Below are positions 5,122-26,630 of a stretch of DNA of 32,000 bases, one piece after another; position 1 is the first letter of the stretch; each line of letters begins with the position of its first letter. The stretch comes from an archaeon (lineage in GTDB: Archaea > Asgardarchaeota > Thorarchaeia > Thorarchaeales > Thorarchaeaceae), in assembly GCA_024275415.1 (NCBI GenBank), contig JAJRZD010000049.1, positions 17,614-49,613 on the forward strand, written 5' to 3'. Made by a program: the position numbers and the translations under genes. A model generated the notes under the pieces. The model ran no database searches and was not told where the DNA came from. It was given only the letters and a program-made list of their open reading frames with translations.

Positions 5122-5631
5122 GTGCAAGCATTGCCATCTCGTCTCTCAGTCGATTATACCAAATGTACAGGATGCCGAATCTGCGAGCTAGCGTGTTCAG
5201 CAAAGAACGAAGGAAGATTTCAGCCCAGCATTGCTCGTCTTAAGATTGTGAAATATGATGATCTAGGACTGGACATCCCACACGTATGCAGCCCCTGCGA
5301 AGAGGCTCCCTGTGTGGAGATATGCCCCGTGTATGCAATGCGGCAGGATCCAATAAGCAAGATGACCTATCTTGATGAGGACAAGTGTATCCTGTGTAAG
5401 TCTTGTGTGGGAGTATGTGTGAATGGCGTGATACTCCTTGACACAGTAAGGATGCGCATCATCAAGTGCGACCATTGTGATGGAGATCCTGAGTGTGCAA
5501 AGGTCTGCCCTACTGGTGCTATCCATTACGGATCAATCAGCAAACTGACGACAATTGAACGACACGCCAAAATAGGCACCTATCTGGACGAAATAAAACG
5601 AGTCGCTGAGAAATCCACTGGAGAGGCGTGA
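5122..5631 (+). CDS. DmsB/HycB/CooF-type 4x[4Fe-4S] electron-transfer subunit
   Basis: Four Cys clusters: CTGCRICELAC, CSPCEEAPCVEICP, CILCKSCVGVC and CDHCDGDPECAKVCP. It abuts the AOR gene. Confidence 0.92.
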   Translation: MQALPSRLSVDYTKCTGCRICELACSAKNEGRFQPSIARLKIVKYDDLGLDIPHVCSPCEEAPCVEICPVYAMRQDPISKMTYLDEDKCILCKSCVGVCVNGVILLDTVRMRIIKCDHCDGDPECAKVCPTGAIHYGSISKLTTIERHAKIGTYLDEIKRVAEKSTGEA

Positions 5632-5632
5632 T

Positions 5633-7507
5633 TTGGTGAATGGTGGGTATACTGGCAAGATTCTACGGGTTGATTTGACCAAGGGCGATTTCAAGGTCGA
5701 GAGCCTTCCAACAGAGTGGGTTCTCAAGTACATTGGGGGAGATGGCTTTGCAGCTCGTCTGCTCTACGACGAGGTTCCTGCAAGGACAGATCCTCTGAGT
5801 CCCGAGAACAAGCTTCTCATTGCGACCGGCCCCATTACAGGCACATTGTGGCCGATGAGTGGTAGAACTGTCTTTGTTTCAAAGGCTGCCCAGACTGGGA
5901 TTTGGGGTGAAAGCCATGTTGGAGGATTTCTTGGCCCAGAGTTGAAATATGCTGGATATGATATGCTAGTAGTAGAAGGTCGTTCAGAGAATCCGGTTCA
6001 TATCTCAATCCATGATGGCGATTTGGAACTGATTGATGCAACTCCACACTGGGGGATGAGAACCGATGAGGTCACAGCAGCCATGCGAAAACACCATAAT
6101 GATCCTGACGTCCAAGTGGGCGCCATCGGCCCTGCTGGAGAACAACTTGTCCGATTTGCCTCAGTCATAGTGAACAATGCTAGAGCAGCTGGGCGGACAG
6201 GGATGGGTGCTGTCTTGGGCTCGAAGAATGTGAAAACCATATCCATTCGAGGACATGGGTCGGTGGAAGTTGCTGAACATGAGGAGTTCTTCAAGCTTGC
6301 AAAGAAGGCTCATCAAAAGGTTCGTCAAAATCCCCAGGCTCGTGAGATGGGTAAATGGGGTACATGGATTCTTACCGCTGTGAAACAGGAGATTGGCGAA
6401 CTTCCCACATTTAACCACCGGACTGGCGTCTTCTCTGGATGGGAATCTCTCAGTGGGGAGTATATCCGCCCTAGGTTCACAGTCAGTGACCGAGCATGTT
6501 TTGGTTGCTCTCTGGGATGCAAGAAGATGAACTACATCCCTGATGGGCCATATGCCGGCACGCTCGAAGAGGGGCCAGAATACGAAGGTCTGATGGCATT
6601 TGGCAGTCTGCTTGGAATTGACGACTATCCTACAACTCTCAAGGCGAATCAGATTTGCAACAAGTACGGGATGGATATAATCTCAGTTGGATCTACAATC
6701 GCTTTTGCAATGGAATGCTACGAGAATGGCATCATCGACGACTCGGATACCGGTGGTGTTCCACTTGAATGGGGAAATACGGAGTCCGCAATCAAGATTC
6801 TTCAGATGATTGCTTCTCGTGAAGGATTCGGTGACATACTTGCAGAAGGGAGCAAGATTGCATCCGAAAAGATTGGAAAAGGTTCTGAGGCGTACGCGAT
6901 ACATGTCAAAGGACTGGAGGTTTCTGGACAAGACGGTCGCACTCATCGTAGCATTGGGCTCTCACATGCAACATCAGCCAGAGGTGCGGATCATCTGAGG
7001 TCTCTGGTCGTCGTCGATCAGCTCGGTTATGAGAAGGTCGCGGCTGAACGCTGGGGTGTAGACAAGCTGCCTGAGATTCTCAATCCCTATACTGAACAGT
7101 ACAAGGCTACTGCTGTTGTCGAAACTGAGAACACATATTGCATCCGAGACACACTCATTGTCTGTTGGTACTCTGTATCGTGGCCCCCAGTATTCTGGAT
7201 GAGTGACTTTGCGGAGATGCTGCCTCTGGCAACTGGCATAGATGCGTTTGGCGATGTCACTACACTGGTTGAGATCGGTGAGCGTCAACTTAATCTGAAA
7301 CGGCTGTTCAATGCTCGGGAAGGGATTACTCGAAAGGATGATCAACTCCCAAAGCGGTTCACTCACGAGCCGATGCCTGAAGGACCTGGGAAGGGACAGG
7401 TGGTTGACCTAGAATCGCTTCTTGATGATTACTATAGGCTCCGGGGCTGGGATCCCGAAACAGGTTTGCCCACAAAAGAAACCCTGCGACGCTTGTCACT
7501 TGAATGA
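5633..7507 (+). CDS. aor: Tungsten-dependent aldehyde:ferredoxin oxidoreductase family protein (AOR/WOR)
   Basis: Motifs GKILRVDL, GGDG, ELKYAGYD, AAGRTGMGAVLGSKN, CFGCSLGC, GPEYE, CNKYGMD and RGADH are present; 624 aa. Confidence 0.93.
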   Translation: MVNGGYTGKILRVDLTKGDFKVESLPTEWVLKYIGGDGFAARLLYDEVPARTDPLSPENKLLIATGPITGTLWPMSGRTVFVSKAAQTGIWGESHVGGFLGPELKYAGYDMLVVEGRSENPVHISIHDGDLELIDATPHWGMRTDEVTAAMRKHHNDPDVQVGAIGPAGEQLVRFASVIVNNARAAGRTGMGAVLGSKNVKTISIRGHGSVEVAEHEEFFKLAKKAHQKVRQNPQAREMGKWGTWILTAVKQEIGELPTFNHRTGVFSGWESLSGEYIRPRFTVSDRACFGCSLGCKKMNYIPDGPYAGTLEEGPEYEGLMAFGSLLGIDDYPTTLKANQICNKYGMDIISVGSTIAFAMECYENGIIDDSDTGGVPLEWGNTESAIKILQMIASREGFGDILAEGSKIASEKIGKGSEAYAIHVKGLEVSGQDGRTHRSIGLSHATSARGADHLRSLVVVDQLGYEKVAAERWGVDKLPEILNPYTEQYKATAVVETENTYCIRDTLIVCWYSVSWPPVFWMSDFAEMLPLATGIDAFGDVTTLVEIGERQLNLKRLFNAREGITRKDDQLPKRFTHEPMPEGPGKGQVVDLESLLDDYYRLRGWDPETGLPTKETLRRLSLE

Positions 7508-9308: not shown

Positions 9309-9422
9309 TTACTACGTTCCAGCTATATTCAAAAAGCGGTATCGCTATTGTTATTCTCCCAGCTCAGTTCGTACTTAACGAGCTACACGGACTGTCCCAC
9401 GATTCTTGAGAGGGATTTTGAG

Positions 9423-12026
9423 ATGTCAGGTAAGAAACGCGGACTTCAAACACCTAGTACGGTAGAAGCGATTCGGATGGCCTCTGCTTCGATTCTTGGC
9501 ACTACTACAGGCAAAGGGTATCCGCTTGGGAGTGCAATTGGTACAGGTAGTAAGATGGAAGAGAATTCAGAGGATGTCGCCCTTCGTATCACGCCATTGA
9601 TTTTCTCATTACATGATGAGTTGCTCTCTTCTGAGAATCTAGAACTCCTTTCAATTGAATGGGATTTGGAAGGTGGACATGGACAAGAAGTATTACCTGA
9701 ACATCTAATTATCACCGGAGGGAAATTTGGTGATGTGTCCTCTCATATCTGCGCATTGAGTTGGGAGAAGGGTATCATCGATCCTTTCAAGATGGATTCC
9801 TATATCAGTGGGGTTGCGAAAAAGCTGTCTGATATTGAGCGAGCAATCATTGTGAACTCGCTAGAGTACGAAACTGATGGTATTATGATCTTGAAGCGTT
9901 TCTCCGACCGCTTCAATAGTGTGACCTTTGTAGAGATGCTTGACCGTCAGTTTCAGGAAACATGGGAGTCCCAAAAGGTAAAGGTCGAGAATGTTGATAT
10001 CGAAACAGTTCTGAAGTATGAATATCGGGATGACTTCGCATCTAATCCTCCCGGCCCCCGCATCCAGAGAAGAAAATCTGCCGAGTTCATGATGCCTGAT
10101 GCAAATGAAAATGAATTAGTACTCCATCTACAACATCGTCTTCTTTCACCAAAGGGGCTTGAAGCAATAGCATCACGTATCCCTGATATGGGACGGAATA
10201 TCCTTGCAGAACTCAACGAGTATGCATATAGCATAGAAGAGGTTGACATCGCACGGGCCGGCATTGCTGCTTTGGTTTCATTCCTCGGGAAAGAAGAGGT
10301 CACCTTATCTGAACTGTCTTATCTTGCCTCTCAGACAGGGGAGTTCTCCGAGGCCATGTCTGATACAGTTGATGCTCTTGCTGAGGTCTTGGAGCAGCAT
10401 GCGACATCAGGGAGCCGATTCACCATTGACGAACACCAGCAGGCACTGCTGTCTCTTTTGGAAAACCAATCTGACTATCTCAATCCACTTCAGATAGCAT
10501 TTGGGAAGGCACTTCTTGAGCACTTAGCCAAATCCATTCGAAGGGAATTCCCGACAGCAGAGGTTATCCGTGCTTGGGAACTAAAGGCTACCCTCTCCTA
10601 TTTCGTTGCCTTTGCAAGACGGGTTCTCGGATACATCTCCCGGGAGCTACAGCAGTTCCTTCAGCTGTCATCGGTTCACAGCATTATGCGTCAGACGCTG
10701 CAAGAGTTCAAAGATGAAGCGGAAGGCGAGATATCTGATCCCACTGAACTCATGCTGTTCCACAAGTTCTACTCTGAGCTGTATTCGTTGCTTAATGCGA
10801 TAATTGATAGAAAATCCTACGAAGGGTTTGAACGCAAACCCATCGAGGTTCTTGTTGATGAGATTACCAATGAAGTAAGTGGTGCATTCAAGTCAATCGA
10901 TGTCTGGGAGTTGATTGGTTTTGGAGATCTGGCTGAGATAGCCCGAACCGAGATTCAGTCGCGTTCTGATTCTGAATCACAGGCCGTTTCCAATGAAACC
11001 CTCCTATCTTTACTGTCGGACTATGAGAAGTTCGTGACCGAAACACTTCCAGATGTAGCTGAAACCTTCCTTTCGAAGCATTTTCTCACGGCCGTCATTG
11101 ACACGATGTCCGAAACAGAGGACGGTCTAATCGCTATCATACGGAGATTGATTGATGCTGAGTCTGAAAAGCCTGATGAGTGGCGCAAAGAAGCCGAACT
11201 CTGGCTTTCACAGCTTGGTGCGCTTATCGATGAATCAATGCCTCTTTCTGAAAAGCTATTCACCCTAATCAAATTAGCCTACATGCAGCTCGGGGAAGGA
11301 GTTTCTCCCGACAGTGTGATTGAAAGGATTCAAGAGGATACGAATGATTTGGAAACGGCATACAATGAGGAAGTCGAAAAATGGGTCGAAACGTGCCGAC
11401 AGATTGATCGGGAAAATGAACCTATACGCGAGAACAATGAGAAGCGTGAAGCAAAACTTGTTGAGGCTGTCAAGTCTTTTGAGGCAGAAATGAAACAGTA
11501 CGAGGAAGCTTTGGAATCTCACAAGCATTTGCTTGCAGCACACCAGCTCGAGGCGGACGGGTCTTCACCACCCCCTCCATCTCCAGAAAAACCCGAGAGC
11601 TTGGAGTCTAGACGGGCACGAATTGACAAGGAATTCCCAGAGATGGTGGAAAAGCAGAAACCTCCCAAGCCCGAACCATCTGAACGATTGATAATACACG
11701 CAGCTCTAAGGGATTTATTAAAAGAGAGCTTTGAGAAAATGAAACGAAGTCAAGAACGGATGGAGCAAGTGTTAACGCTTCGTCTTAGGGCTTTGAGGGC
11801 AGAAGGTGCAAAAATGGCTGAGGGATTGACCATTGGGATCAGCACAGGTTTCTTGGAATTCCTGATGAACTCCGAGATTAGAAAGCTCGGTCAGCTGCTA
11901 CCTCGGGTCAAAAGAGCGTACTTGCGAGATACTGACGATCCTAGCTTGGTCTATTTGGTCACTTATGAATTCCGAGGAAACATGCTTTCAGTTTCCATCG
12001 GGAACAATCTACTGAGGAGGCAATGA
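9423..12026 (+). CDS. Large unknown protein (867 aa): longin-like N-terminus, helical body, Pro-tipped coiled coil, small C-terminal alpha/beta domain
   Basis: Long uninterrupted ORF. ATG 9423 follows GAGAGGG. Its stop overlaps the next start (ATGA at 12023-12026). Domain calls rest on secondary-structure pattern only. Confidence 0.85.
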   Translation: MSGKKRGLQTPSTVEAIRMASASILGTTTGKGYPLGSAIGTGSKMEENSEDVALRITPLIFSLHDELLSSENLELLSIEWDLEGGHGQEVLPEHLIITGGKFGDVSSHICALSWEKGIIDPFKMDSYISGVAKKLSDIERAIIVNSLEYETDGIMILKRFSDRFNSVTFVEMLDRQFQETWESQKVKVENVDIETVLKYEYRDDFASNPPGPRIQRRKSAEFMMPDANENELVLHLQHRLLSPKGLEAIASRIPDMGRNILAELNEYAYSIEEVDIARAGIAALVSFLGKEEVTLSELSYLASQTGEFSEAMSDTVDALAEVLEQHATSGSRFTIDEHQQALLSLLENQSDYLNPLQIAFGKALLEHLAKSIRREFPTAEVIRAWELKATLSYFVAFARRVLGYISRELQQFLQLSSVHSIMRQTLQEFKDEAEGEISDPTELMLFHKFYSELYSLLNAIIDRKSYEGFERKPIEVLVDEITNEVSGAFKSIDVWELIGFGDLAEIARTEIQSRSDSESQAVSNETLLSLLSDYEKFVTETLPDVAETFLSKHFLTAVIDTMSETEDGLIAIIRRLIDAESEKPDEWRKEAELWLSQLGALIDESMPLSEKLFTLIKLAYMQLGEGVSPDSVIERIQEDTNDLETAYNEEVEKWVETCRQIDRENEPIRENNEKREAKLVEAVKSFEAEMKQYEEALESHKHLLAAHQLEADGSSPPPPSPEKPESLESRRARIDKEFPEMVEKQKPPKPEPSERLIIHAALRDLLKESFEKMKRSQERMEQVLTLRLRALRAEGAKMAEGLTIGISTGFLEFLMNSEIRKLGQLLPRVKRAYLRDTDDPSLVYLVTYEFRGNMLSVSIGNNLLRRQ

Positions 12027-14485
12027 ATATGTCAAGTTCCTGGTTACTCAAGACTCGCCAGATGAGTGAGGCTGGAAAAGAGATTATCCTTTCTGAGGCA
12101 TTAGCGACACATATGCGTAGCCCACGTGACCGGAAATTGGTAATGGGTGAGTTTGCAGAGAAACACCCACTGGAGGATCTTATCTCATTCTTTGGCGCAT
12201 TCTATCTCTATCACTATCAGGGTCTCCGACTTCTCCAAATCGATAGTGCTGACGATTTGTCAATTGAGGAAATGGAGGCGCTCACAAAGAAGGAACGAGA
12301 ACTTCTTGAGGTAGAGGTTCGAATGATGCTCGGAGAGAAGCAGCGAGAAGAGATTGATGTGAGTAGGATCTCCAGTGAGTTCATCGTTTCAATGTGCGAT
12401 TATCTCTTGGGTTCTGTCCCGAAAGATGACCGCGAATCTATCAGTGATGTCATTTCTCTTCTAAAGGATCATTTTCAAATGATTCCGACTTCCTATTCGC
12501 TGAATAGCGAGATTGATTTTATCAACGAGGTCGCCGGATGGGGCAGCACATGGCGTCGTGAACTATATGTTAAGGCATCTGGTCTCAAAGAGGCTGCATT
12601 GTCTCTTCGAGACGAGCTGCTCAAGCCTCATTATGAAGAGATTGTCGAGTCAACGGTTCTCCTGAAAGGGATTGAGAAAATCACAGGCCAAATTCGTCTG
12701 ATGTGCGGAAGGGTATTCACTGACGACCTACCCCGTGAACAGTGGGCGAAGGTCGCAGAGGCCGTCCTAGAACACTTCAGAAACCCCAATGTTTCTCTTC
12801 CTGCGCTCAGAGAAGCCAACCGGATTCGAATCTCAGTGATAGATGTCTTGGAACAGGAGATAGAAACCCCTATGACCTTTGAAGAGTACGAGTCCCTCCT
12901 CGTGAAGGTCATTGTTGAGGGGATAGGAAAGATTCCTGATGGTGTTGATCTTCTTGATACCCTTTCTTATTTTGTTGCAATACCATTGGATGATGTTCGG
13001 GCCGCCTTACGATCCAACAGGATTACGGATCCCTCCACGATCATCGAAGGTCTCAATGCAACCGTTGTTGACATGGACGCGTCAGAATCAGCAGAAACAT
13101 CCGATTCTCCATCGTTGAGTCAAGAAGAACTTGAAGAACTCACGCGAAACATAAGGCGCTTGGAGAAGATAGAGCATACACTGGAGAGACCTGTCAAGGG
13201 TATGTTGAAGGCGAAAGGACTGCGTGCTGCTGAGCTTGACAAGATTTCCATCGAGTTCTTGACTAAGCCCCGTTCATCTCTACTGGGTTTTGAAATCCAA
13301 GTCCTTGAAGAACTCAAGAAAAAAATACGGGTTCCTCCACCTGAGGAAATATCTCGTCTTCTTCAGCTTCGTGAGGAGTTCAAAAGTGGCTCACTTACTG
13401 GAGTTGAAATGTCTAGGTCTTCTGAATTGGGTCGGCAAATCCAGCATGGGAAGCATATGGTGACGCTAAGGGACGACTTGGTTTGGTTCTTTACTATTAG
13501 CATTCTGAAAAATCTTTCACGAGTTATTGAAACATATATCCGATCCAAGCATGACATTCAACGTTCAAAGACTTTGTTGAAAAGCATCTATGAAGACTCG
13601 AATACGCAACTCCAATTCTTGAGAGAAGAGATCTTGATTGACCTGCTGTCAATGAGACTGTACGAGATGAAGATGATTCACCCTGAACTCGATACCCAAA
13701 CAGTCTGCACTTGGTACCACGCTCGTTTGTCCAATACGGATCTCGATACAGCAAAGGAACGACTGGAAACCACCACCTCGCCTGTCTTTGGAGGAGTTGT
13801 CGATATGCCCTTGAAGCTATCCGAACTGAATTATGATAACTATGCCATCGCGTATGATCTTATGCAGAGGTTCCTTGATCGCCAACGGTCAGAACGTGAG
13901 GTTAGAATCGAAATAGTCGCCAAAACAAAAGAGGTTGAGAAGCAGAAGATTGCAGAGAAGAAGGCAGGCCTCGATGTCATGAATTTCATTTATACGAAGG
14001 CACACACCGTCTTCAGGGCTATCGGACGAGTCGGCGCCCGAGGCCTTGAATGGAACGCTAATGATGATGCGAAATGTGCGAACCTTTTGGCTTTCTTCCT
14101 CAACACAAGCCGCGGGCGTTCGATATGTGCTGTATGTGGTGAGGTTGCAAAGGATGGTGCCTGCAGTCTGCATGGCAAGGGACAGGTGAATGTTTCAAAT
14201 GACATCGACAATCTTTCGTGGTTTGTGATGCGTGCCCATACGGACATTAAAGAAGGATTGCTCGGTGCCAAGGCGGAACCTATGAGCTGGTCAGATGCAC
14301 GACAGATTGTCCAGAGGGAACTTGCCAATCTAAGACGACGCGGAAAAATCACGAGCAAAACCAACCCCAAGGAAATGATGCCCGGGGAAATCAACTACAT
14401 AGTGGGTCCTGCAATAGCGCGAGTAATCGGCAAATACTTCAATGAATCCTTGGAATATGCCGCTCGACGTGCTGGAATCGCCTAA
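12023..14485 (+). CDS. Large unknown alpha-helical protein (820 aa) with a C-terminal C2-CH zinc knuckle
   Basis: Long ORF coupled to the upstream gene by an ATGA overlap. CAVC-x8-CSLH lies at 14126-14173. Confidence 0.87.
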   Translation: MNMSSSWLLKTRQMSEAGKEIILSEALATHMRSPRDRKLVMGEFAEKHPLEDLISFFGAFYLYHYQGLRLLQIDSADDLSIEEMEALTKKERELLEVEVRMMLGEKQREEIDVSRISSEFIVSMCDYLLGSVPKDDRESISDVISLLKDHFQMIPTSYSLNSEIDFINEVAGWGSTWRRELYVKASGLKEAALSLRDELLKPHYEEIVESTVLLKGIEKITGQIRLMCGRVFTDDLPREQWAKVAEAVLEHFRNPNVSLPALREANRIRISVIDVLEQEIETPMTFEEYESLLVKVIVEGIGKIPDGVDLLDTLSYFVAIPLDDVRAALRSNRITDPSTIIEGLNATVVDMDASESAETSDSPSLSQEELEELTRNIRRLEKIEHTLERPVKGMLKAKGLRAAELDKISIEFLTKPRSSLLGFEIQVLEELKKKIRVPPPEEISRLLQLREEFKSGSLTGVEMSRSSELGRQIQHGKHMVTLRDDLVWFFTISILKNLSRVIETYIRSKHDIQRSKTLLKSIYEDSNTQLQFLREEILIDLLSMRLYEMKMIHPELDTQTVCTWYHARLSNTDLDTAKERLETTTSPVFGGVVDMPLKLSELNYDNYAIAYDLMQRFLDRQRSEREVRIEIVAKTKEVEKQKIAEKKAGLDVMNFIYTKAHTVFRAIGRVGARGLEWNANDDAKCANLLAFFLNTSRGRSICAVCGEVAKDGACSLHGKGQVNVSNDIDNLSWFVMRAHTDIKEGLLGAKAEPMSWSDARQIVQRELANLRRRGKITSKTNPKEMMPGEINYIVGPAIARVIGKYFNESLEYAARRAGIA

Positions 14486-14916: not shown

Positions 14917-16314
14917 ATGGGAAATAGGTTTGCTCCCAAAGGAGTGATGCCTGCCTTGGTGACTCCATTCACAAAGGACGGCGATATCATTGAAGAGAGC
15001 TATAAGGCAATCATCGATTATACTATTGACAAGGGTGCGACTGGTGTCGTCCCCGCGGGAACCACGGGAGAGTTCGTCTATATGCGGACTGAAGAGCGAA
15101 AAAAGCTTCTTCGCCTCACTGTGGAATTTGTGGATGGGAGAGGTCCAATAATCGCTGGAACTGGTCAAAACAGTACTGATGCAACAATCGCCCTTACCAA
15201 ATACGCGGCTGATATCGGCTGTGATGCAGCACTTGTCATTTCTCCTTTCTATTTACGTCCTAGTGACAAGGGTTACTACGAGCACTATGAATCTGTTGCT
15301 ACCAGAAGCGACCTGCCTATCATCTTGTACAACATCCCTCAATGCACCCTCGGTGTCATCAACTCCCCTGTCGTTGAGGATCTTGCCGAGCTGGATAATA
15401 TCGTAGGGATAAAGGACAGTAGCGGTTCCATCGGGCATACTGTCGAACTGATTCAGAAACTCGATGGCAAAATTCCTGTGATTATAGGACATGATGAGTG
15501 TTTCCTCTCTGCGGTTTCGGCTGGTGCCAAAGCCGCCATTCTTGCGTCGGCAAACGTCATCCCACACATCTGGCTTCAGATTATGGAGCATATTCACGAT
15601 GGGCACATAGATGAAGCGATGAAGTTGCAGCATCGTGCACAGACCTTTGCAAGGATTGTCACAAGAAATGGTGGTGCACCTCCGGTGAAGGCTGCACTGA
15701 AAATGCTTGGGTTGAAAGCTGGCAAATCTAGAATGCCATTGGACTCAGGTGGCACCCTTTCTGTAGAGCTGAAAGATGAGATTCGTTTGGAGCTTGAGAG
15801 ATTGGGACTTCTGGATGACCCCCCCTCTCCCCCTGTTGATTCTTCAATCAGTATTGAAACAATCCTCTCAGATGAAGGGTTCTCCCTTGGGGCAGATGTC
15901 AAGTTTGGCTCAGGTGTTGCAGATATGGTTTCGGTAAGCATTGCCATAGGATCCAAAAATGGTGAATTGGGTCGCGCCTTTGTAAGATTGCTGACAACCC
16001 CGAAAGTCGGACAGGAGGCGTTGACCGTCATTCTTGAGCCCAATCTTGCAGTAAGACCAAGCAGCATCATGCTACCCACAAGAGCGATCACGTCAATGCG
16101 ACAAGCATCCCTGTTCTATGGTCCTGTCCAATCAGGTGCTGCAAAGGCTCTTTCTGAGTTCCTTGAGAACGGTCGGATTCCTGAGGAATCGATAAGAAAT
16201 GATGTTGCTATTCTGGCAATAGACATAGACCTTCAATCCCATCTCAGGCGGGAGGTCACTGCCCAAGCCAAACAAGCAGTCCTTGGTGCTCTTAGTGAGG
16301 TGTGGAGGGAATAA
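14917..16314 (+). CDS. DapA/NAL-family class I aldolase fused to a degenerate formaldehyde-activating enzyme (Fae)-like domain (paralogue A)
   Basis: Aldolase motifs: ALVTPF, GTTGEF, IIAGTG, SPFY, LYNIP, GIKDSSG. C-terminal ~135 aa: AFVRLLTTPKVG...VILEPNLAVRP...RQASLFYGPVQSGAAKA matches the Fae core. Confidence 0.88.
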   Translation: MGNRFAPKGVMPALVTPFTKDGDIIEESYKAIIDYTIDKGATGVVPAGTTGEFVYMRTEERKKLLRLTVEFVDGRGPIIAGTGQNSTDATIALTKYAADIGCDAALVISPFYLRPSDKGYYEHYESVATRSDLPIILYNIPQCTLGVINSPVVEDLAELDNIVGIKDSSGSIGHTVELIQKLDGKIPVIIGHDECFLSAVSAGAKAAILASANVIPHIWLQIMEHIHDGHIDEAMKLQHRAQTFARIVTRNGGAPPVKAALKMLGLKAGKSRMPLDSGGTLSVELKDEIRLELERLGLLDDPPSPPVDSSISIETILSDEGFSLGADVKFGSGVADMVSVSIAIGSKNGELGRAFVRLLTTPKVGQEALTVILEPNLAVRPSSIMLPTRAITSMRQASLFYGPVQSGAAKALSEFLENGRIPEESIRNDVAILAIDIDLQSHLRREVTAQAKQAVLGALSEVWRE

Positions 16315-16316
16315 CA

Positions 16317-17792
16317 ATGAGTGAGAAGTTCAGGTTCAAAGGTGTCTATCCGGCCCTTATTACGCCCTTCAATGAAGACGGTGTTGATGAAGAGAAATAT
16401 AGGGGTCTAATTGACTATGTGATAAAATCTGGTGCTACAGGGATTGTCCCGTGTGGCACAACAGGCGAATTCACCTCTATGCGATTTGATGAGAAGGCTG
16501 AGGCGATTCGTATCGCATGCGAAGCAGCAAAGGGCAAGGTTCCTGTAATCGCGGGAACTGGTGCCGCCTATACAGGTGATGCCATAAAGCTCACAAGGCG
16601 TGCCGTAGAGTTCGGAGCTGATGCTGCATTGGTGGTTTCTCCATACTTCTTGAAGCCCTCGAACAAGGAGATATTCGAGCATTTCGAGAAGGTTGCTAAC
16701 AACTCCGACATTCCAATCTTTGTTTACAACATCCCTCAAGTGACTGGCGTGCCGATCCACTGGACAGTGATTGATGGCCTGAGGGAGATTGATGGTATCA
16801 TCGGGCTCAAAGATTCTAGCGGGGATCTCGTGAATCTGACTACCGTGCTGGTTCGTAAACCCGAAGACTTTCAGGTCGTCGTAGGACATGATGAGGTCGC
16901 CCTCCCTGCTCTAGCAAGTGGTTGTGATGGTGCGATACTTGCAAGCGCAAACATCTTTCCAAACAGGTACCTTAAGATGCAATCCGCTCTGGCAAGTGGA
17001 GATTTGAAAGAGGCACTCCTCATCCAGAGAAGCATTCAGAAGACGGTCAGGATTATTGTTAACAAAGGTGGAGGTCTTGCAGTAAAGACTGCGCTCAACA
17101 TGATGGGTATTCCTGTGGGTTCAGCAAGAGGCCCTCTTCTTGAGGGTGACCTGCTCTCGTATGAGGATATCGACGAACTTCGTACATGCTTGGAAGACCT
17201 CCAATTGATTCCGCGTGGGTCGGTCACATTTCGGATGGGCGACAAAACCATCGTTGCTGAAGGATACCCAAAGGCGGTTGGTCTGGTTCCTGATGCCGTG
17301 GACGACCTCACACTATTGCATGGAGAGGCTCTCACGGGAGGTGGTTATGAAGTAGCCCATGTTGATCTGATTATGGGCATTCGCGGAGGACCTATCGATT
17401 CTGCTCTTGAATTAGCTGGTCAGATACGCGAAGGATATCACAGTTCCAATATCATCAATGACTTGGAGCCTGAAACTGTGTTTGCACCCACAGTCACGAT
17501 AACCCATGAGAATCATAGGCGCCTAGTCTATGACATCGCTCAAAAAGCAGTCATTGACGCAGTCAGGCGGACGATAACGGATGGTGTGATCCCTGATGAA
17601 CTTGTGCCAGATCTGGTCATTGCAGCCAATGTGTTTGTGCATCCCAGTGCTGTGAATGCCCGAAGAGTACACATCAATAATTTCAGGGCCGTGCGTCATG
17701 CGATACGACGTGCAATCGAGGGACGACAACCTACATCTGAGATAGTTGCACGAAAGGAGTCTGCCCGACATCCATTTGCGTACAACCCCTAA
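16317..17792 (+). CDS. DapA/NAL-family class I aldolase fused to an Fae domain (paralogue B)
   Basis: Aldolase motifs: ALITPF, GTTGEF, VIAGTG, SPYF, VYNIP, GLKDSSG. C-terminal HGEALTGGGYEVAHVDLIMG...VFVH...RHAIRRAIEG...ARHPF matches Fae (GEALxGxGxEVAHxDLxxG...HPF). Start at ATG 16317 after GGAGG. Confidence 0.9.
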   Translation: MSEKFRFKGVYPALITPFNEDGVDEEKYRGLIDYVIKSGATGIVPCGTTGEFTSMRFDEKAEAIRIACEAAKGKVPVIAGTGAAYTGDAIKLTRRAVEFGADAALVVSPYFLKPSNKEIFEHFEKVANNSDIPIFVYNIPQVTGVPIHWTVIDGLREIDGIIGLKDSSGDLVNLTTVLVRKPEDFQVVVGHDEVALPALASGCDGAILASANIFPNRYLKMQSALASGDLKEALLIQRSIQKTVRIIVNKGGGLAVKTALNMMGIPVGSARGPLLEGDLLSYEDIDELRTCLEDLQLIPRGSVTFRMGDKTIVAEGYPKAVGLVPDAVDDLTLLHGEALTGGGYEVAHVDLIMGIRGGPIDSALELAGQIREGYHSSNIINDLEPETVFAPTVTITHENHRRLVYDIAQKAVIDAVRRTITDGVIPDELVPDLVIAANVFVHPSAVNARRVHINNFRAVRHAIRRAIEGRQPTSEIVARKESARHPFAYNP

Positions 17793-18650: not shown

Positions 18651-19697
18651 ATGGCAATGAACCGAAAGATGGTAGGACAATATACACTTCGAATGATCGG
18701 GCTCATTCTCTTTGTGGTCATTATTGCAAATACTGATTTCACAGGGGTTGGTTATATCCTGACCAACATTAACCTCCTTTACCTGATTGCTCTTGTTGTA
18801 CTAGTCCTGCCAATCATGCTACTCAAGGGCTTCCGCTGGTATGTGATTGCGAATTCGTTGGGAATGAACCTCAAGCCTGATGAGGCTACAACTGGGTTAT
18901 GCATCGCACAGATGACCGGTCTGACCCTACCGGGTGCTTTGGGAGACCTGATTCGTATCCCATTCTTGAAATGTCGCGGCAATCCTTCCGACAAGTCGAT
19001 ACTTAGTCTGTTCCTGGATGCTATTGCAGCATCCATTGTCCCTTACTCGGTTTCTATCATTGCGATGATAGAATTCTTCAATCTTGATGTTTCGTTGATT
19101 GTTGCGGTTGTATTCTTTGGACTGTTGTTCGTCATTGGTGTCTATGGCATCTTCAAGATTATCATGTTCATCATCGGCCCGTGGATGTATCAGGCACGAT
19201 TAAGGCGGATACAGCGAGGAGGTGCTCTAGGAAGGATAGTGTTTCAGACCCGTGATTCCATTCGTTTCATTGGTTTGCCATCGTTCTTCTTAGCAACTCT
19301 GTTGTCTGGGTTGGCATGGCTGGTCTATTCTATGCAAGGATGGCTCCTCGCGCGTGTCTTGCAACTTGATGTCACATGGTATCACATCGCCTTGGCATTG
19401 ACGTTGACCTCCTTGATTACAGCACTTCCCATCTCGATTCAAGGAGTAGGTATCCGAGAAGGCGTCCTTTTGTTCATCCTGAGTACATTATTGGGTTTAG
19501 AAGCCAGTTCAGTCGTAGTATTTGCAATAGCATTGACCCTGATTTCCCTGACCCCTGCAGCGTGGGGAATCATAAGTTGGATTCGTGATCCCTTCGTCCG
19601 CTTGGAACCCGAACATGTGGAGGATGCCATAACGCAGCCTATTGAGGTGTTCTTAAACCTCAGTAATTCTGAATTTGAGATTTCGCACAATACATGA
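18651..19697 (+). CDS. Lysylphosphatidylglycerol-synthase TM-domain / UPF0104 (AglD2-like) flippase-type membrane protein
   Basis: About 8 hydrophobic segments. Motifs KGFRW, TLPGALGDLIR and ALPISIQGVGIREG are typical of this family. Confidence 0.85.
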   Translation: MAMNRKMVGQYTLRMIGLILFVVIIANTDFTGVGYILTNINLLYLIALVVLVLPIMLLKGFRWYVIANSLGMNLKPDEATTGLCIAQMTGLTLPGALGDLIRIPFLKCRGNPSDKSILSLFLDAIAASIVPYSVSIIAMIEFFNLDVSLIVAVVFFGLLFVIGVYGIFKIIMFIIGPWMYQARLRRIQRGGALGRIVFQTRDSIRFIGLPSFFLATLLSGLAWLVYSMQGWLLARVLQLDVTWYHIALALTLTSLITALPISIQGVGIREGVLLFILSTLLGLEASSVVVFAIALTLISLTPAAWGIISWIRDPFVRLEPEHVEDAITQPIEVFLNLSNSEFEISHNT

Positions 19698-19734
19698 GGT
19701 TAATTTCTTAACAGAAACCGTCAGACATTGGTAC

Positions 19735-20877
19735 ATGCCCGACACTGGCAGACTGTTGAATTTAGCAAAAGAAATGATATCTGCGAATTCTGAGAACCCT
19801 CCTGGTTATGAGAAAGACGTCGCTGCGATTCTAAAAGACCATTTGGAATCCGAAGGACTATCATGTAGGTCTGTTGGATCCAGCGAGAGACCCAATCTCA
19901 TCTTCTCCACCAATGACGATGCAGTTGGGCCGTTGGTCATCCACGGACACATGGATACAGTTCCCGCTGGCAATCTTGATCAATGGTCGCATGATCCGTT
20001 CAAAGCAGAGGTCGTTGACGGGCGCCTTTACGGTCGTGGTGCATGTGACATGAAAGGGCCTTTGGCTGCATTGGCTGAAACCATGATACTTTACAGCGAG
20101 AAGAACTACGATGTCCCTCTTGTGCTTCTCTGCACTTCTGATGAAGAGAGTGGATGTTCGGGAGCGGAAGTGGTTGCGGATAGTGGTTTCCTGAAGGGTG
20201 TAAAGTATGGTGTCTGTGCTGAGCCCACCGGATTGGATGTGCTTGTAGGTGAGAAAGGCATGCTCTGGACAAAGGTCGCCGCACACGGGAAGGCCGCTCA
20301 CGGTTCACGGCCAGGAGAAGGGCGAAATGCAATCCTTCTATGCCAAAGGGCATTGGATGTTCTGACCCAGCATGATTATCATTCAGAGCCCAATGACTTA
20401 CTCGGTCAGATGACCATCAACATTGGGATGATACAGGGCGGTGTTAAGATCAATGTGGTTCCTGACTATTGCGAGGCAAGTATTGATATGAGGACTGTAG
20501 CAGGACAAACTGTTGAGAGTATCATGGATGAAATGAATCAGGTACTCGCAGATGCTGGTATGGACGAATCCATTTCCATTGAATACGTTCATGGAAAGCC
20601 CGCGGTAATAACTCCTGATGATGCTCTAATCGTCAGAATTGCGCAGGATGTTGTTGCGTCTGTCACAGGAGCCAGAAACCCTCTGACTGCTGCAACATAT
20701 GGTACCGATTGTTCAGTGCTTCAACCTCGGATTAACATTCTGAATGTCATATGTGGACCTGGTTCTATTGAGCAAGCTCATCAACCTGACGAGTACATCC
20801 AAATTAGCCAGCTCGAAGATGCTGTGAATGTCTATCTCACGATTGCAGAGCGTGTCCTACAGGAGAAGAGTCCCTGA
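19735..20877 (+). CDS. M20 family metallo-amidohydrolase (ArgE/DapE-like)
   Basis: Motifs HGHMDTVP, GRGACDMKG, SDEESG, AEPT, GKAAHGS and GPGSIEQAHQPDEY are present. Start ATG 19735. Confidence 0.93.
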   Translation: MPDTGRLLNLAKEMISANSENPPGYEKDVAAILKDHLESEGLSCRSVGSSERPNLIFSTNDDAVGPLVIHGHMDTVPAGNLDQWSHDPFKAEVVDGRLYGRGACDMKGPLAALAETMILYSEKNYDVPLVLLCTSDEESGCSGAEVVADSGFLKGVKYGVCAEPTGLDVLVGEKGMLWTKVAAHGKAAHGSRPGEGRNAILLCQRALDVLTQHDYHSEPNDLLGQMTINIGMIQGGVKINVVPDYCEASIDMRTVAGQTVESIMDEMNQVLADAGMDESISIEYVHGKPAVITPDDALIVRIAQDVVASVTGARNPLTAATYGTDCSVLQPRINILNVICGPGSIEQAHQPDEYIQISQLEDAVNVYLTIAERVLQEKSP

Positions 20878-23594: not shown

Positions 23595-24485
23595 ATTAGC
23601 CGCAAGAAATGGGGAAAATCTACCATAAAGACCGAGAAGGTTATCCGTGCTGCAATTCCAAAACCAGAAACATTGGCAGAGATTGACCAATACCTGAGCA
23701 AAGCACGATCTATAACTCCGTACGATTTGGCAAATCGATTTGGAATTCGGATGAGCGTAGCTCGAAAACTGTTACGTCAGAAAGAAACAGAAGGAGTAGT
23801 GGTGCCTTATATCCGCGGAGGCGGCTTTGTTGTGTATTCTACCCCTGCTGAGATTGCTAGGCGTGAAGGAGGCACTCCTATAATGACTGCGGATGTCTTG
23901 AAGGAGATATCATCATCAGTTTCACATGAAACTGTATTCGATGAAGAGATGGAAGCCGCTCTTGCCGCTGCTGCTTCTTCAGCCGGAACTATCGTCAAGC
24001 CTAGTAAATTGGCAAGAAAGCGACGTGAGGTCGGCGAGAGAAAAGAACGAAAGGAAACGCGTCCTGAAATAGTAGTTGAGCCTCTGACAGAGGAAACACC
24101 TCCAGTCCCAGAACCCCCCAAGGTGGAGGAGAAACCCAAGGAGGCTGCTAAGAAACCAAAGAAGGAAGAAAAGCCCAAGAAGGCTGCTCCAAAGACAGAA
24201 CCAAAGAAGGCTGACAAGAAACCCAAAAAGGAATCCAAGACAACTGCCAAAAAACCTGCGGCCAAGAAGGTTCGCAAACCAGAACTCGTTGATATCGAGG
24301 GTGTTGGTCCCAAAAAGGCAGAGAAAATTCGAGAAAGCGGTTTCAAGACTGTTGCAGCAATATCCAAGACCACAGCTGAAAAGCTCTCCAAGAAAGTTTC
24401 GGGAATCTCAGAGACCACAGCTCAGCATTACATCGATTCAGCCAAGAAACTAATTGAAGAATATGAAAAGGCCAAGGCACAATAG
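23595..24485 (+). CDS. rps25e: 30S ribosomal protein eS25 fused via a K/E/P/A linker to a helix-hairpin-helix domain; probable ATT start
   Basis: RKKWGK...ITPYDLANRFGIRMSVARKLL...GVV...VVY is the eS25 winged helix. C-terminal LVDIEGVGPKKAEKIRESGF...VSGISETTA is HhH-like. No ATG/GTG/TTG lies in frame between the TAA at 23577 and the TTG at 23673. Confidence 0.85.
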   Translation: MSRKKWGKSTIKTEKVIRAAIPKPETLAEIDQYLSKARSITPYDLANRFGIRMSVARKLLRQKETEGVVVPYIRGGGFVVYSTPAEIARREGGTPIMTADVLKEISSSVSHETVFDEEMEAALAAAASSAGTIVKPSKLARKRREVGERKERKETRPEIVVEPLTEETPPVPEPPKVEEKPKEAAKKPKKEEKPKKAAPKTEPKKADKKPKKESKTTAKKPAAKKVRKPELVDIEGVGPKKAEKIRESGFKTVAAISKTTAEKLSKKVSGISETTAQHYIDSAKKLIEEYEKAKAQ

Positions 24486-25776: not shown

Positions 25777-26628
25777 TCAGTTATCTTTCTTGTCTGATTT
25801 CCCTTCAAGGATCGCTCTTCGTATTATCTGGATGAGCCTATCTCGATATGAGATGTCAATGGCGACAAGTTCATAGGTCGGGATGCCGAGGATCTGTCCG
25901 ACACGTTCAGGCGTGAGTGCGGTTGGAAGATCTTGCTTGTTGGCAATTCCTAAGATCTTCGCATCTGGAACCTCATCTTTTACAAGTGTTACCAGTTTCT
26001 TACTTCTAAGCACATTCTCAAGTGTGCTGTCTGTAACAATCACTACCACTTGGGCATTAGCAATCATTTTCGCCCATAGAATACTGAATCGGGACTGTCC
26101 TGCAAGATCCCATAGAACGATATTGGCATTCTCCACCTCTTCTGGGAGTTTCTTGATGCTGACGCCGATGGTCGGATCATGGACGAGTGGAAGGGTTTCG
26201 CCTCGTAACAGGTGCAGTGTTGTGGTCTTCCCAACTCCTGCAAACCCTAGGATTGCAACCTTCACCATGGTCACGGCAATCTCATCGACTTTTTCATCAA
26301 ATCCGTCAAGAGGTTGATGATTCTTAGCCAGCTCTATATACTCGCGTTTGAATATATCAACCAATTGCCCCACTTTGTCCTCAATTTGTGCTGAATCATC
26401 TGCCTTATCAGCAATGAAAATGAATGTGAAGTCATCTTGAACAGTGTAGAAGAATCGTGATGTGGATAGGTTCATGAATTCAGTCTTTCCATCAAGGTTA
26501 ACTGTTCCAAGGAAATTCGTTAGGTTCACTAGAAACTCGACAAGACTGCTCCTTGCCTCGCTCTCTGCATACTCTTTTGAGAAGACGATATTTCCAGTTT
26601 TCTCGAGTATGTAGACGCTTCTAATCAC
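25777..26628 (-). CDS. Longin-domain-fused small GTPase (Ras superfamily, mixed Rab/Arf features)
   Basis: N-terminal MIRSVYILEKTGNIVFSKEY...FFYTVQDDFTFIFIAD is longin-like. GTPase motifs: G1 GFAGVGKT, G2 PTIG, G3 WDLAGQ, G4 NKQD. Confidence 0.92.
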   Translation of the reverse strand: MIRSVYILEKTGNIVFSKEYAESEARSSLVEFLVNLTNFLGTVNLDGKTEFMNLSTSRFFYTVQDDFTFIFIADKADDSAQIEDKVGQLVDIFKREYIELAKNHQPLDGFDEKVDEIAVTMVKVAILGFAGVGKTTTLHLLRGETLPLVHDPTIGVSIKKLPEEVENANIVLWDLAGQSRFSILWAKMIANAQVVVIVTDSTLENVLRSKKLVTLVKDEVPDAKILGIANKQDLPTALTPERVGQILGIPTYELVAIDISYRDRLIQIIRRAILEGKSDKKDN

Positions 26629-26630
26629 AT

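Follow-up and report, generated by a model that had tools for sequence, protein, structure and literature searches.

What reaction is catalyzed by two neighboring proteins that each join an aldolase barrel of the DapA (dihydrodipicolinate synthase, DHDPS) family to a formaldehyde-activating enzyme (Fae) domain? The question is raised by a 32,000-nucleotide stretch of contig JAJRZD010000049.1 (assembly GCA_024275415.1, positions 17,614 to 49,613), hereafter the window, from a 3.5-Mb, 92.9% complete genome of a Thorarchaeota (Asgard) archaeon. The two genes, which we call A and B, lie side by side on its forward strand (Table 1), and their close homologues bear the Thorarchaeota name. An earlier note on this DNA had described them as a tandem pair of fusions. 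Both are indeed aldolase-Fae fusions; the copies are not equivalent, in that neither Fae domain is complete and each lacks the blocks that the other keeps. Given the sequence comparisons and structural models described below, we rate at about even the chance that A and B are two subunits of one heteromeric bifunctional enzyme that moves one-carbon (C1) units between methylene-tetrahydromethanopterin (methylene-H4MPT) and a 2-oxo acid.

Two complementary Fae domains

Pfam searches placed a DHDPS barrel in each protein (A, E = 5.8e-76, residues 7-276; B, E = 9.1e-74, residues 7-278), followed by a C-terminal match to the Fae profile (A, E = 2.1e-23, residues 338-460, covering only profile positions 13-135 of 159; B, E = 1.1e-29, residues 336-487, covering the full profile). 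The Fae scores (83.5 in A and 104 in B) lie well above the gathering score of 27. The earlier note's reading of a Schiff-base lysine in each barrel (GIKDSSG with Lys166 in A, GLKDSSG with Lys165 in B) and of a Fae domain behind it is thus borne out. Against the Fae equivalog model TIGR03126, A and B score 75.2 and 114.9 bits, respectively, and neither reaches the cut-off of 118.05. The full-length AlphaFold2 (AF2) models are confident (predicted local distance difference test, pLDDT, 91.1 and predicted TM score, pTM, 0.82 for A; 90.2 and 0.89 for B).

We aligned the Fae parts of 13 A-type proteins, 12 B-type proteins, 5 single-gene fusions, and 4 Fae-Hps proteins, and scored them on 54 columns that are conserved in canonical Fae. 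Block 1 (GEAL...E-x-A-H-x-D-L...GP) is kept to 0-0.4 in A-type and to 0.9-1.0 in B-type proteins, whereas block 2 (L-x-PNL-x-x-KP ... GP-x-Q) is kept to 0.85-0.92 in the A-type and to 0-0.3 in the B-type, which carries a deletion of 5-6 residues there. Block 3 and the C-terminal arm (F-V-H-P, N-N-Y-x-A, S-A-R-H-P-F) again favor the B-type (1.0, versus 0-0.4 in the A-type, where the arm is missing). At the level of single motifs, the His/Asp motif of B (EVAH348-V-D350-L) is kept in 92% of B-type proteins, and its counterpart in A (DMVSVSI) leaves 0% of A-type proteins with the motif; the positions of His22 and Asp24 in Methylobacterium extorquens Fae are occupied by His348 and Asp350 in B and by Ser339 and Ser341 in A. 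In the PNL/GPxQ segment, A reads LEPNL and YGPVQ405 (retained in 77-92% of A-type proteins), whereas the loop is deleted in B and the GP is kept in 0-8% of B-type proteins. The arm, (A/S)-(R/K/T)-H-P, is SARHPF in B and invariant among B-type proteins, and A ends before it. A comparison with the solved Fae structure 1Y5Y gave the same division, with B matching over residues 8-168, including EVAH-x-D (E = 1e-21), and A matching in the middle part only (E = 1.8e-8). In addition, 43-sequence alignments revealed that, within the Fae part of each subunit, the invariant residues sit in the blocks that this subunit retains. As read from these alignments, the His/Asp and PNL/GPxQ features of Fae come together in the pair only, the former being absent from A alone and the latter from B alone.

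These patterns, together with the models, make A and B look like two halves of one composite Fae site, and hence like one heteromeric enzyme. The Fae of M. extorquens (PDB 1Y5Y/1Y60) shares its fold and motifs with them, and B retains its His/Asp motif and C-terminal arm; unlike A and B, each of which is incomplete so that a site would be possible only at the predicted A:B interface, it is a homopentamer of complete subunits. In that enzyme, H4MPT reportedly occupies a site between neighboring subunits, with His22 as acid catalyst and Gln88 in contact with the pterin, and both Gln88 and the C-terminal arm are reported to move on binding.

We modeled the two Fae domains together (residues 300-465 of A and 305-491 of B) alongside three controls, using a score mark that 58 of 80 solved complexes and 2 of 110 mismatched pairs attain. 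The A:B model scored 0.89 and the best of the three controls 0.00, although this high score may partly reflect a memory of the solved Fae homopentamer and speaks for the likeness of the interface, not for binding. The runs agreed in at least 81% of contacts, with partner pLDDT of at least 79. The predicted interface sets residues 372-380 and 402-406 of A against residues 335-339, 348, 350, 358-363, and 483-487 of B, and the facing surfaces are exactly those retained in each subunit. Collectively, the alignments and the model point to a hetero-interface rather than to active sites between identical subunits.

At the junction of the genes, A ends in TAA (16312-16314), followed by CA and the ATG of B at 16317, which yields a protein of 491 aa; with this start, the spacing of 2 nt given in the earlier note is correct. 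An alternative start at 16302 would give an open reading frame (ORF) of 496 aa. The GGAGG within the end of A fits translational coupling of the two genes. Upstream of the pair, CutA1 lies on the opposite strand, and B is followed by an 858-nt spacer in which no convincing ORF was found; an Rfam search found no RNA family anywhere in the window. Because of the short gap, the internal GGAGG, and these flanks, the pair has the look of a unit of two genes that is self-contained and coupled in translation.

Table 1. Coordinates of the gene pair and its features, numbered from the first letter of the window
Feature	Coordinates	Strand	Description	Evidence
Gene A (P0001)	14917..16314	+	465 aa; class I aldolase barrel and partial Fae-like domain; 'A-type' subunit	ORF, Pfam DHDPS and Fae, AF2
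A TIM barrel, DHDPS family	14935..15744	+	residues 7-276; GTTGEF, Tyr138 (YNIP), Lys166 (GIKDSSG, codon 15412-15414), GHDE; Cys at the DHDPS Arg138 position	
A Fae-like domain	15928..16296	+	residues 338-460; block 2 retained (LEPNL..RP ... MRQAS.YGPVQ, Gln405); His/Asp motif (Ser339, Ser341), FVHP block, and C-terminal arm lost	
GGAGG, Shine-Dalgarno-like	16304..16308	+	within the 3' end of A, 8 nt ahead of the B ATG	sequence read directly
Gene B (P0002)	16317..17792	+	491 aa; class I aldolase barrel and Fae domain without block 2; 'B-type' subunit	ORF, Pfam, AF2
B TIM barrel, DHDPS family	16335..17150	+	residues 7-278; GTTGEF, Tyr137, Lys165 (GLKDSSG, codon 16809-16811), GHDE, invariant Trp149; Val at the DHDPS Arg138 position	
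B Fae domain	17322..17777	+	residues 336-487; GEAL..EVAH348-V-D350-L, GGP, NVFVHP, NNF.A, and arm SARHPF retained; PNL loop with a 5-6 residue deletion, GPAQ decayed	

Relatives of the pair and the link to H4MPT

A pattern scan with one genome per species found relatives in 197 stretches. The A-then-B pair occurs in Thorarchaeota, Hermodarchaeota, Baldrarchaeum, another Asgard family, Bathyarchaeota, Korarchaeota, a metagenome-assembled genome (MAG) labeled 'Thermoplasmata', and an Anaerolineae bacterium, and both the gene order and the tight spacing hold in the Thor, Baldr, Hermod, Bathy, and Korarchaeota lineages and in the Anaerolineae bacterium. The arrangement is not due to chance, as over 100 protein clusters and the genomes of many species show the same pair. 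A single-gene form of ~496 aa with all four Fae blocks is present in Lokiarchaeota-type and other Asgard families and in Bathyarchaeota, and its Fae domains score 191-225 bits against the equivalog cut-off of 118. In a tree of aldolase domains, the single-gene forms are basal and the B-type and A-type proteins form clades (support 100/96 and 98/89, respectively), which suggests that A and B arose by a single ancient duplication and then spread. In Korarchaeota (L014; P0133/P0308, P0126), the B barrel clusters with the A protein beside it and not with other B proteins, which suggests gene conversion or a separate duplication. A search of the available library of papers found none describing an aldolase-Fae fusion, and the earlier note likewise knew of no characterized DapA-Fae fusion.

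The genome of the window encodes Mch (E = 5.5e-126) and Ftr (E = 4.7e-52). In a sample of 151 Asgard genomes, the families with Fae domains, of whatever kind, coincided with those that have Mch, and no family without Mch had any, so Fae tracks this H4MPT gene family by family, as the earlier note's proposal would have it. Nearly all fusion carriers have Mch; the three without a match (counted manually from match lists) are MAGs (81-90% complete) whose families otherwise possess Mch. H4MPT-linked genes have been noted in Thorarchaeota and Chloroflexi in a published survey (PMC5020050).

Most other Mch-positive Asgard families carry the archaeal Fae-Hps (NF009833; 5,6,7,8-tetrahydromethanopterin hydro-lyase/3-hexulose-6-phosphate synthase), whereas Thorarchaeota carry only the A/B pair, which makes the analogy with Fae-Hps drawn in the earlier note an apt one. 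In both cases, Fae is fused to a TIM barrel that makes or uses formaldehyde by aldol chemistry (as predicted for A and B) in H4MPT-containing archaea, and the Fae domain of the single-gene aldolase-Fae form is as canonical as that of Fae-Hps. In contrast to Fae-Hps, A and B pair Fae with a DHDPS-family Schiff-base 2-oxoacid aldolase and not with an Hps of the orotidine-monophosphate-decarboxylase fold, the domain order is reversed with Fae at the C terminus, and the Fae site appears to be split between two paralogous subunits. Indeed, A and B contain no Hps domain and score only 65 and 86 bits against NF009833 (cut-off, 274).

In the window's genome, we found no Hps above cut-off, no Fae-Hps, and no stand-alone Fae, which leaves A and B with its sole Fae domains. 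This would also suit an explanation that we consider unlikely, namely that the pair is simply the organism's formaldehyde-activating enzyme, serving detoxification or assimilation, with the barrels as an oligomerization scaffold and no coupled aldol reaction. One divergent high-GC lineage (contig PWJQ01...; L012:8544-11449; P0307/P0132, P0128) argues for it and against a coupled enzyme, having lost the Schiff-base lysine from both barrels (ADSSG, LDATG) while keeping the pair; judging from these sequences, the Fae part can evidently matter there without aldolase chemistry. However, GTTGEF, YNIP, KDSSG, and GHDE are retained in both barrels across phyla, and the lysine, the tyrosine, GTTGEF, and GHDE are invariant or nearly so in Asgard archaea, Bathyarchaeota, Korarchaeota, and Chloroflexi. 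Moreover, many Asgard genomes hold the single-gene fusion alongside a normal Fae-Hps, so the fusion is not just 'the Fae' of its host.

Several genes adjoin members of the family. P0272 (312-340 aa, without a Pfam or NCBIfam match) lies next to aldolase-Fae genes in four Asgard families (Baldr, f12, f13, and f21; L010:7628-8566, L020:2349-3287, L017:3181-4251, L019:2039-3064, L015:2421-3404); its nearest clusters by language-model features are Peptidase_U32-like (score 0.98), and a search with it as query found no homologue in the window's genome. P0273 (435 aa, no family match) is directly upstream of the Loki-type single-gene fusion (L016:3252-4559, L005:1-765) and shares 65% identity, unusually high for an unknown, with a protein whose gene lies at another place in the window's genome (contig C122 35210-36478; L023:8187-9485), where the context is uninformative. 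A gene of the CitG family (triphosphoribosyl-dephospho-CoA synthase-like) adjoins a single-gene fusion at L017:5763-6755; homologues of this family occur in H4MPT-linked gene clusters of methylotrophs.

Within the window, two large overlapping ORFs without any Pfam match (9348-12026 and 12023-14485; 892 and 820 aa) lie immediately upstream of the pair. About 7 kb upstream, genes for a ferredoxin and, after it, an aldehyde:ferredoxin oxidoreductase (5122-7507) place another aldehyde-handling enzyme in the region. Downstream of the pair is a gene for an M20 peptidase/deacylase (19675-20877); an unrelated Asgard family also has one downstream of its single-gene fusion (L017:6850-8202), which may be coincidence. 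Farther on are a ribosomal protein eS25 domain with a long extension ending in a helix-hairpin-helix (23673-24485; Pfam S25 and HHH_5) and eukaryote-like genes (25777-27737 and 27878-30310), comprising an Arf/Roc-type small GTPase after a 368-aa winged-helix protein and an 810-aa protein with a terminal EAP30/Vps36 (ESCRT-II) domain.

The aldolase barrels

Both barrels keep the equivalents of the Schiff-base lysine, the tyrosine, and the threonines of DHDPS (Lys166, Tyr138, and GTTGEF in A; Lys165 and Tyr137 in B), which are Lys161, Tyr133, and Thr44/45 in Escherichia coli numbering. The arginine that binds the carboxylate of aspartate semialdehyde in DHDPS (Arg138, in YNVP.RT) is absent from all 30 aligned fusions, with A reading YNIPQCTL and B YNIPQVTG, and the fusions have GHDE in place of the DHDPS motif GDD. 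Each subunit would accordingly contain a Schiff-base (class I) 2-oxoacid aldolase barrel that is derived from DapA and has lost the aspartate-semialdehyde arginine. Since a Fae module is fused to a Schiff-base 2-oxoacid aldolase without an aspartate-semialdehyde pocket, a formaldehyde-handling aldolase is the simplest reading. A difference between the subunits at Tyr106/Tyr107 (F-Y or Y-Y in A and Y-F in B of Thorarchaeota) was considered and set aside as not family-wide, the B proteins of other lineages having Y-Y or F-Y.

The pocket could also serve another aldehyde (glyoxylate, acetaldehyde, or glycolaldehyde) or another 2-oxo acid (such as 2-oxoisovalerate, yielding ketopantoate), with the Fae-like site binding H4MPT or another pterin for a reaction that does not involve formaldehyde. 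We think this improbable but worth weighing, as the pocket is unlike that of every characterized subfamily and all NCBIfam models other than dapA remain far below their cut-offs. Indeed, the profiles for N-acetylneuraminate lyase (NAL) and 2-keto-3-deoxygluconate (KDG) aldolase gave A/B scores of 138/162 against 382 (nanA), 158/176 against 281 (PRK04147), and 115/119 against 390 (Arch_KDGaldase). Both barrels also have a GxDE motif, typical of the NAL subfamily, and the Fae domains of the window fall short of the equivalog cut-off. Against this stand the fully canonical Fae domains of the putative single-gene ancestors, which lie well above that cut-off. In addition, PanB (ketopantoate hydroxymethyltransferase) is encoded in this genome (E = 5e-115) and accompanies the fusion in most of its carriers, leaving no ketopantoate gap to be filled; given its presence here and in most fusion-carrying families, we rejected the idea that the fusion substitutes for a missing PanB.

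Public records name these proteins 4-hydroxy-tetrahydrodipicolinate synthase, and on the dapA model TIGR00674 the two proteins score 226.1 and 234.3 bits, above the cut-off of 206.15. The likeness to DapA (TIGR00674) and the wider DHDPS/NAL family (PF00701) extends to the barrel, the catalytic residues named above, and the nearest sequence relatives and solved structures, all of which are DHDPS; furthermore, A and B are the sole DHDPS-family genes of the genome. They differ from DapA in the missing Arg138, in GHDE for GDD, in an added C-terminal extension of ~190 aa, and in having no DapB partner. DapB (DapB_N) was not found in the window's 92.9% complete genome, nor in most fusion-carrying families; a full-length DapB was found in just one of 27 sampled Asgard families, where it adjoins a separate dapA. 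This is the case in the Loki-type genome G040, in which a canonical dapA (YNVPGRT, GIKCASG, LSGDD) lies directly upstream of dapB and a fusion is encoded as well. The aldolase-domain tree places the fusions in a clade of their own (99/99), separate from the DHDPS-family genes that stand alone in the same genomes. We therefore reject the annotated role, a true DapA of lysine synthesis with an accessory domain, as highly improbable despite the profile scores, given the replacement of Arg138 by Cys or Val in every family member, the failure to find DapB in this genome, the dapA-dapB control genome, and the position in the tree. From their sequences, the barrels are judged to derive from DapA but not to be DHDPS in function, and the name DapA is a database misannotation.

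A candidate C1-transferring enzyme and its direction

We infer the substrates, direction, channelling, and stoichiometry of the A/B enzyme as follows. The two subunits would descend from a single-gene aldolase-Fae fusion that is still present in Loki-type Asgard archaea and Bathyarchaeota, and their C-terminal domains would pair into one composite Fae site, to which B contributes the His348/Asp350 acid-catalyst motif and the C-terminal arm and A the wall formed by PNL and Gln405. This site would interconvert formaldehyde plus H4MPT and methylene-H4MPT, and the barrel or barrels would join or split formaldehyde and a 2-oxo acid enamine, most likely in the reaction pyruvate <-> 4-hydroxy-2-oxobutanoate. 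The net effect would be the shuttling of a C1 unit between methylene-H4MPT and the 2-oxo acid with no release of free formaldehyde.

The same aldol chemistry is used in the engineered homoserine cycle, which reportedly relies on the promiscuous 4-hydroxy-2-oxobutanoate aldolases RhmA and YfaU of E. coli, the DHDPS-family proteins YagE and YjhH having reportedly also been tested. Unlike the proposed A/B enzyme, whose activity is predicted, those aldolases take free formaldehyde and lack a C1-carrier module. PanB is comparable in that a methylene-pterin is the net donor of a C1 unit to C3 of a 2-oxo acid; however, it is metal dependent, has a different fold, uses methylene-tetrahydrofolate directly, and coexists with the fusion in this genome.

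The earlier note had suggested a link to homoserine catabolism, which the distribution of homoserine dehydrogenase (Hom) does not support. Hom was not found in the window's genome or in 24 of 26 Thorarchaeota, and it occurs in ~9 of 64 fusion-carrying versus ~47 of 87 non-carrying Asgard genomes, in manual counts from match lists that are not corrected for kinship. The same trend, with Hom rarer where the fusion is present, holds inside the Loki-type family, and the nearly complete genomes G040 and G023 combine a good ThrC and the single-gene fusion with no Hom. If anything, the pattern faintly favors an anabolic role, in which C1 and pyruvate yield a homoserine precursor, over catabolism. Along these lines, A/B could be a natural methylene-H4MPT:pyruvate hydroxymethyltransferase that makes 4-hydroxy-2-oxobutanoate from Wood-Ljungdahl C1 units and pyruvate, with transamination then yielding homoserine (and from it threonine and methionine) in archaea without the aspartate-semialdehyde/homoserine-dehydrogenase route; we regard this specific role as doubtful.

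Several observations weigh against the proposed enzyme or its anabolic use, beyond the kinship limit on the Hom counts and the lineage without Schiff-base lysines. The solved Fae is reportedly a pentamer and DHDPS enzymes are dimers or tetramers, which complicates a joint assembly. Gene neighbors vary between lineages, and we found no conserved neighbor that points to a substrate. Hom and the fusion occur together in Baldr, in families f16 and f18, and in four Loki genomes. A canonical homoserine kinase was not found in Thorarchaeota, whose ThrC-like genes score just above the cut-off; the context of the ThrC gene in the window's genome was uninformative.

If the hydroxymethyltransferase reading is true, the engineered homoserine-cycle step would have a natural counterpart in archaea that rank among the most abundant in sediments. 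More generally, the chemistry proposed here, if true, would give the H4MPT C1 pathway a previously undescribed point of entry or exit that is tied directly to pyruvate, and it would provide a natural template for the formaldehyde-assimilating aldolases wanted in synthetic methylotrophy. It would also correct a systematic database error, as hundreds of such proteins are named DapA, and offer a clean case of two paralogues that, following a duplication, came to divide an inter-subunit active site between them. The finding would concern Thorarchaeota, Lokiarchaeota-type Asgard archaea, Bathyarchaeota, and their relatives, which are dominant in many anoxic sediments.

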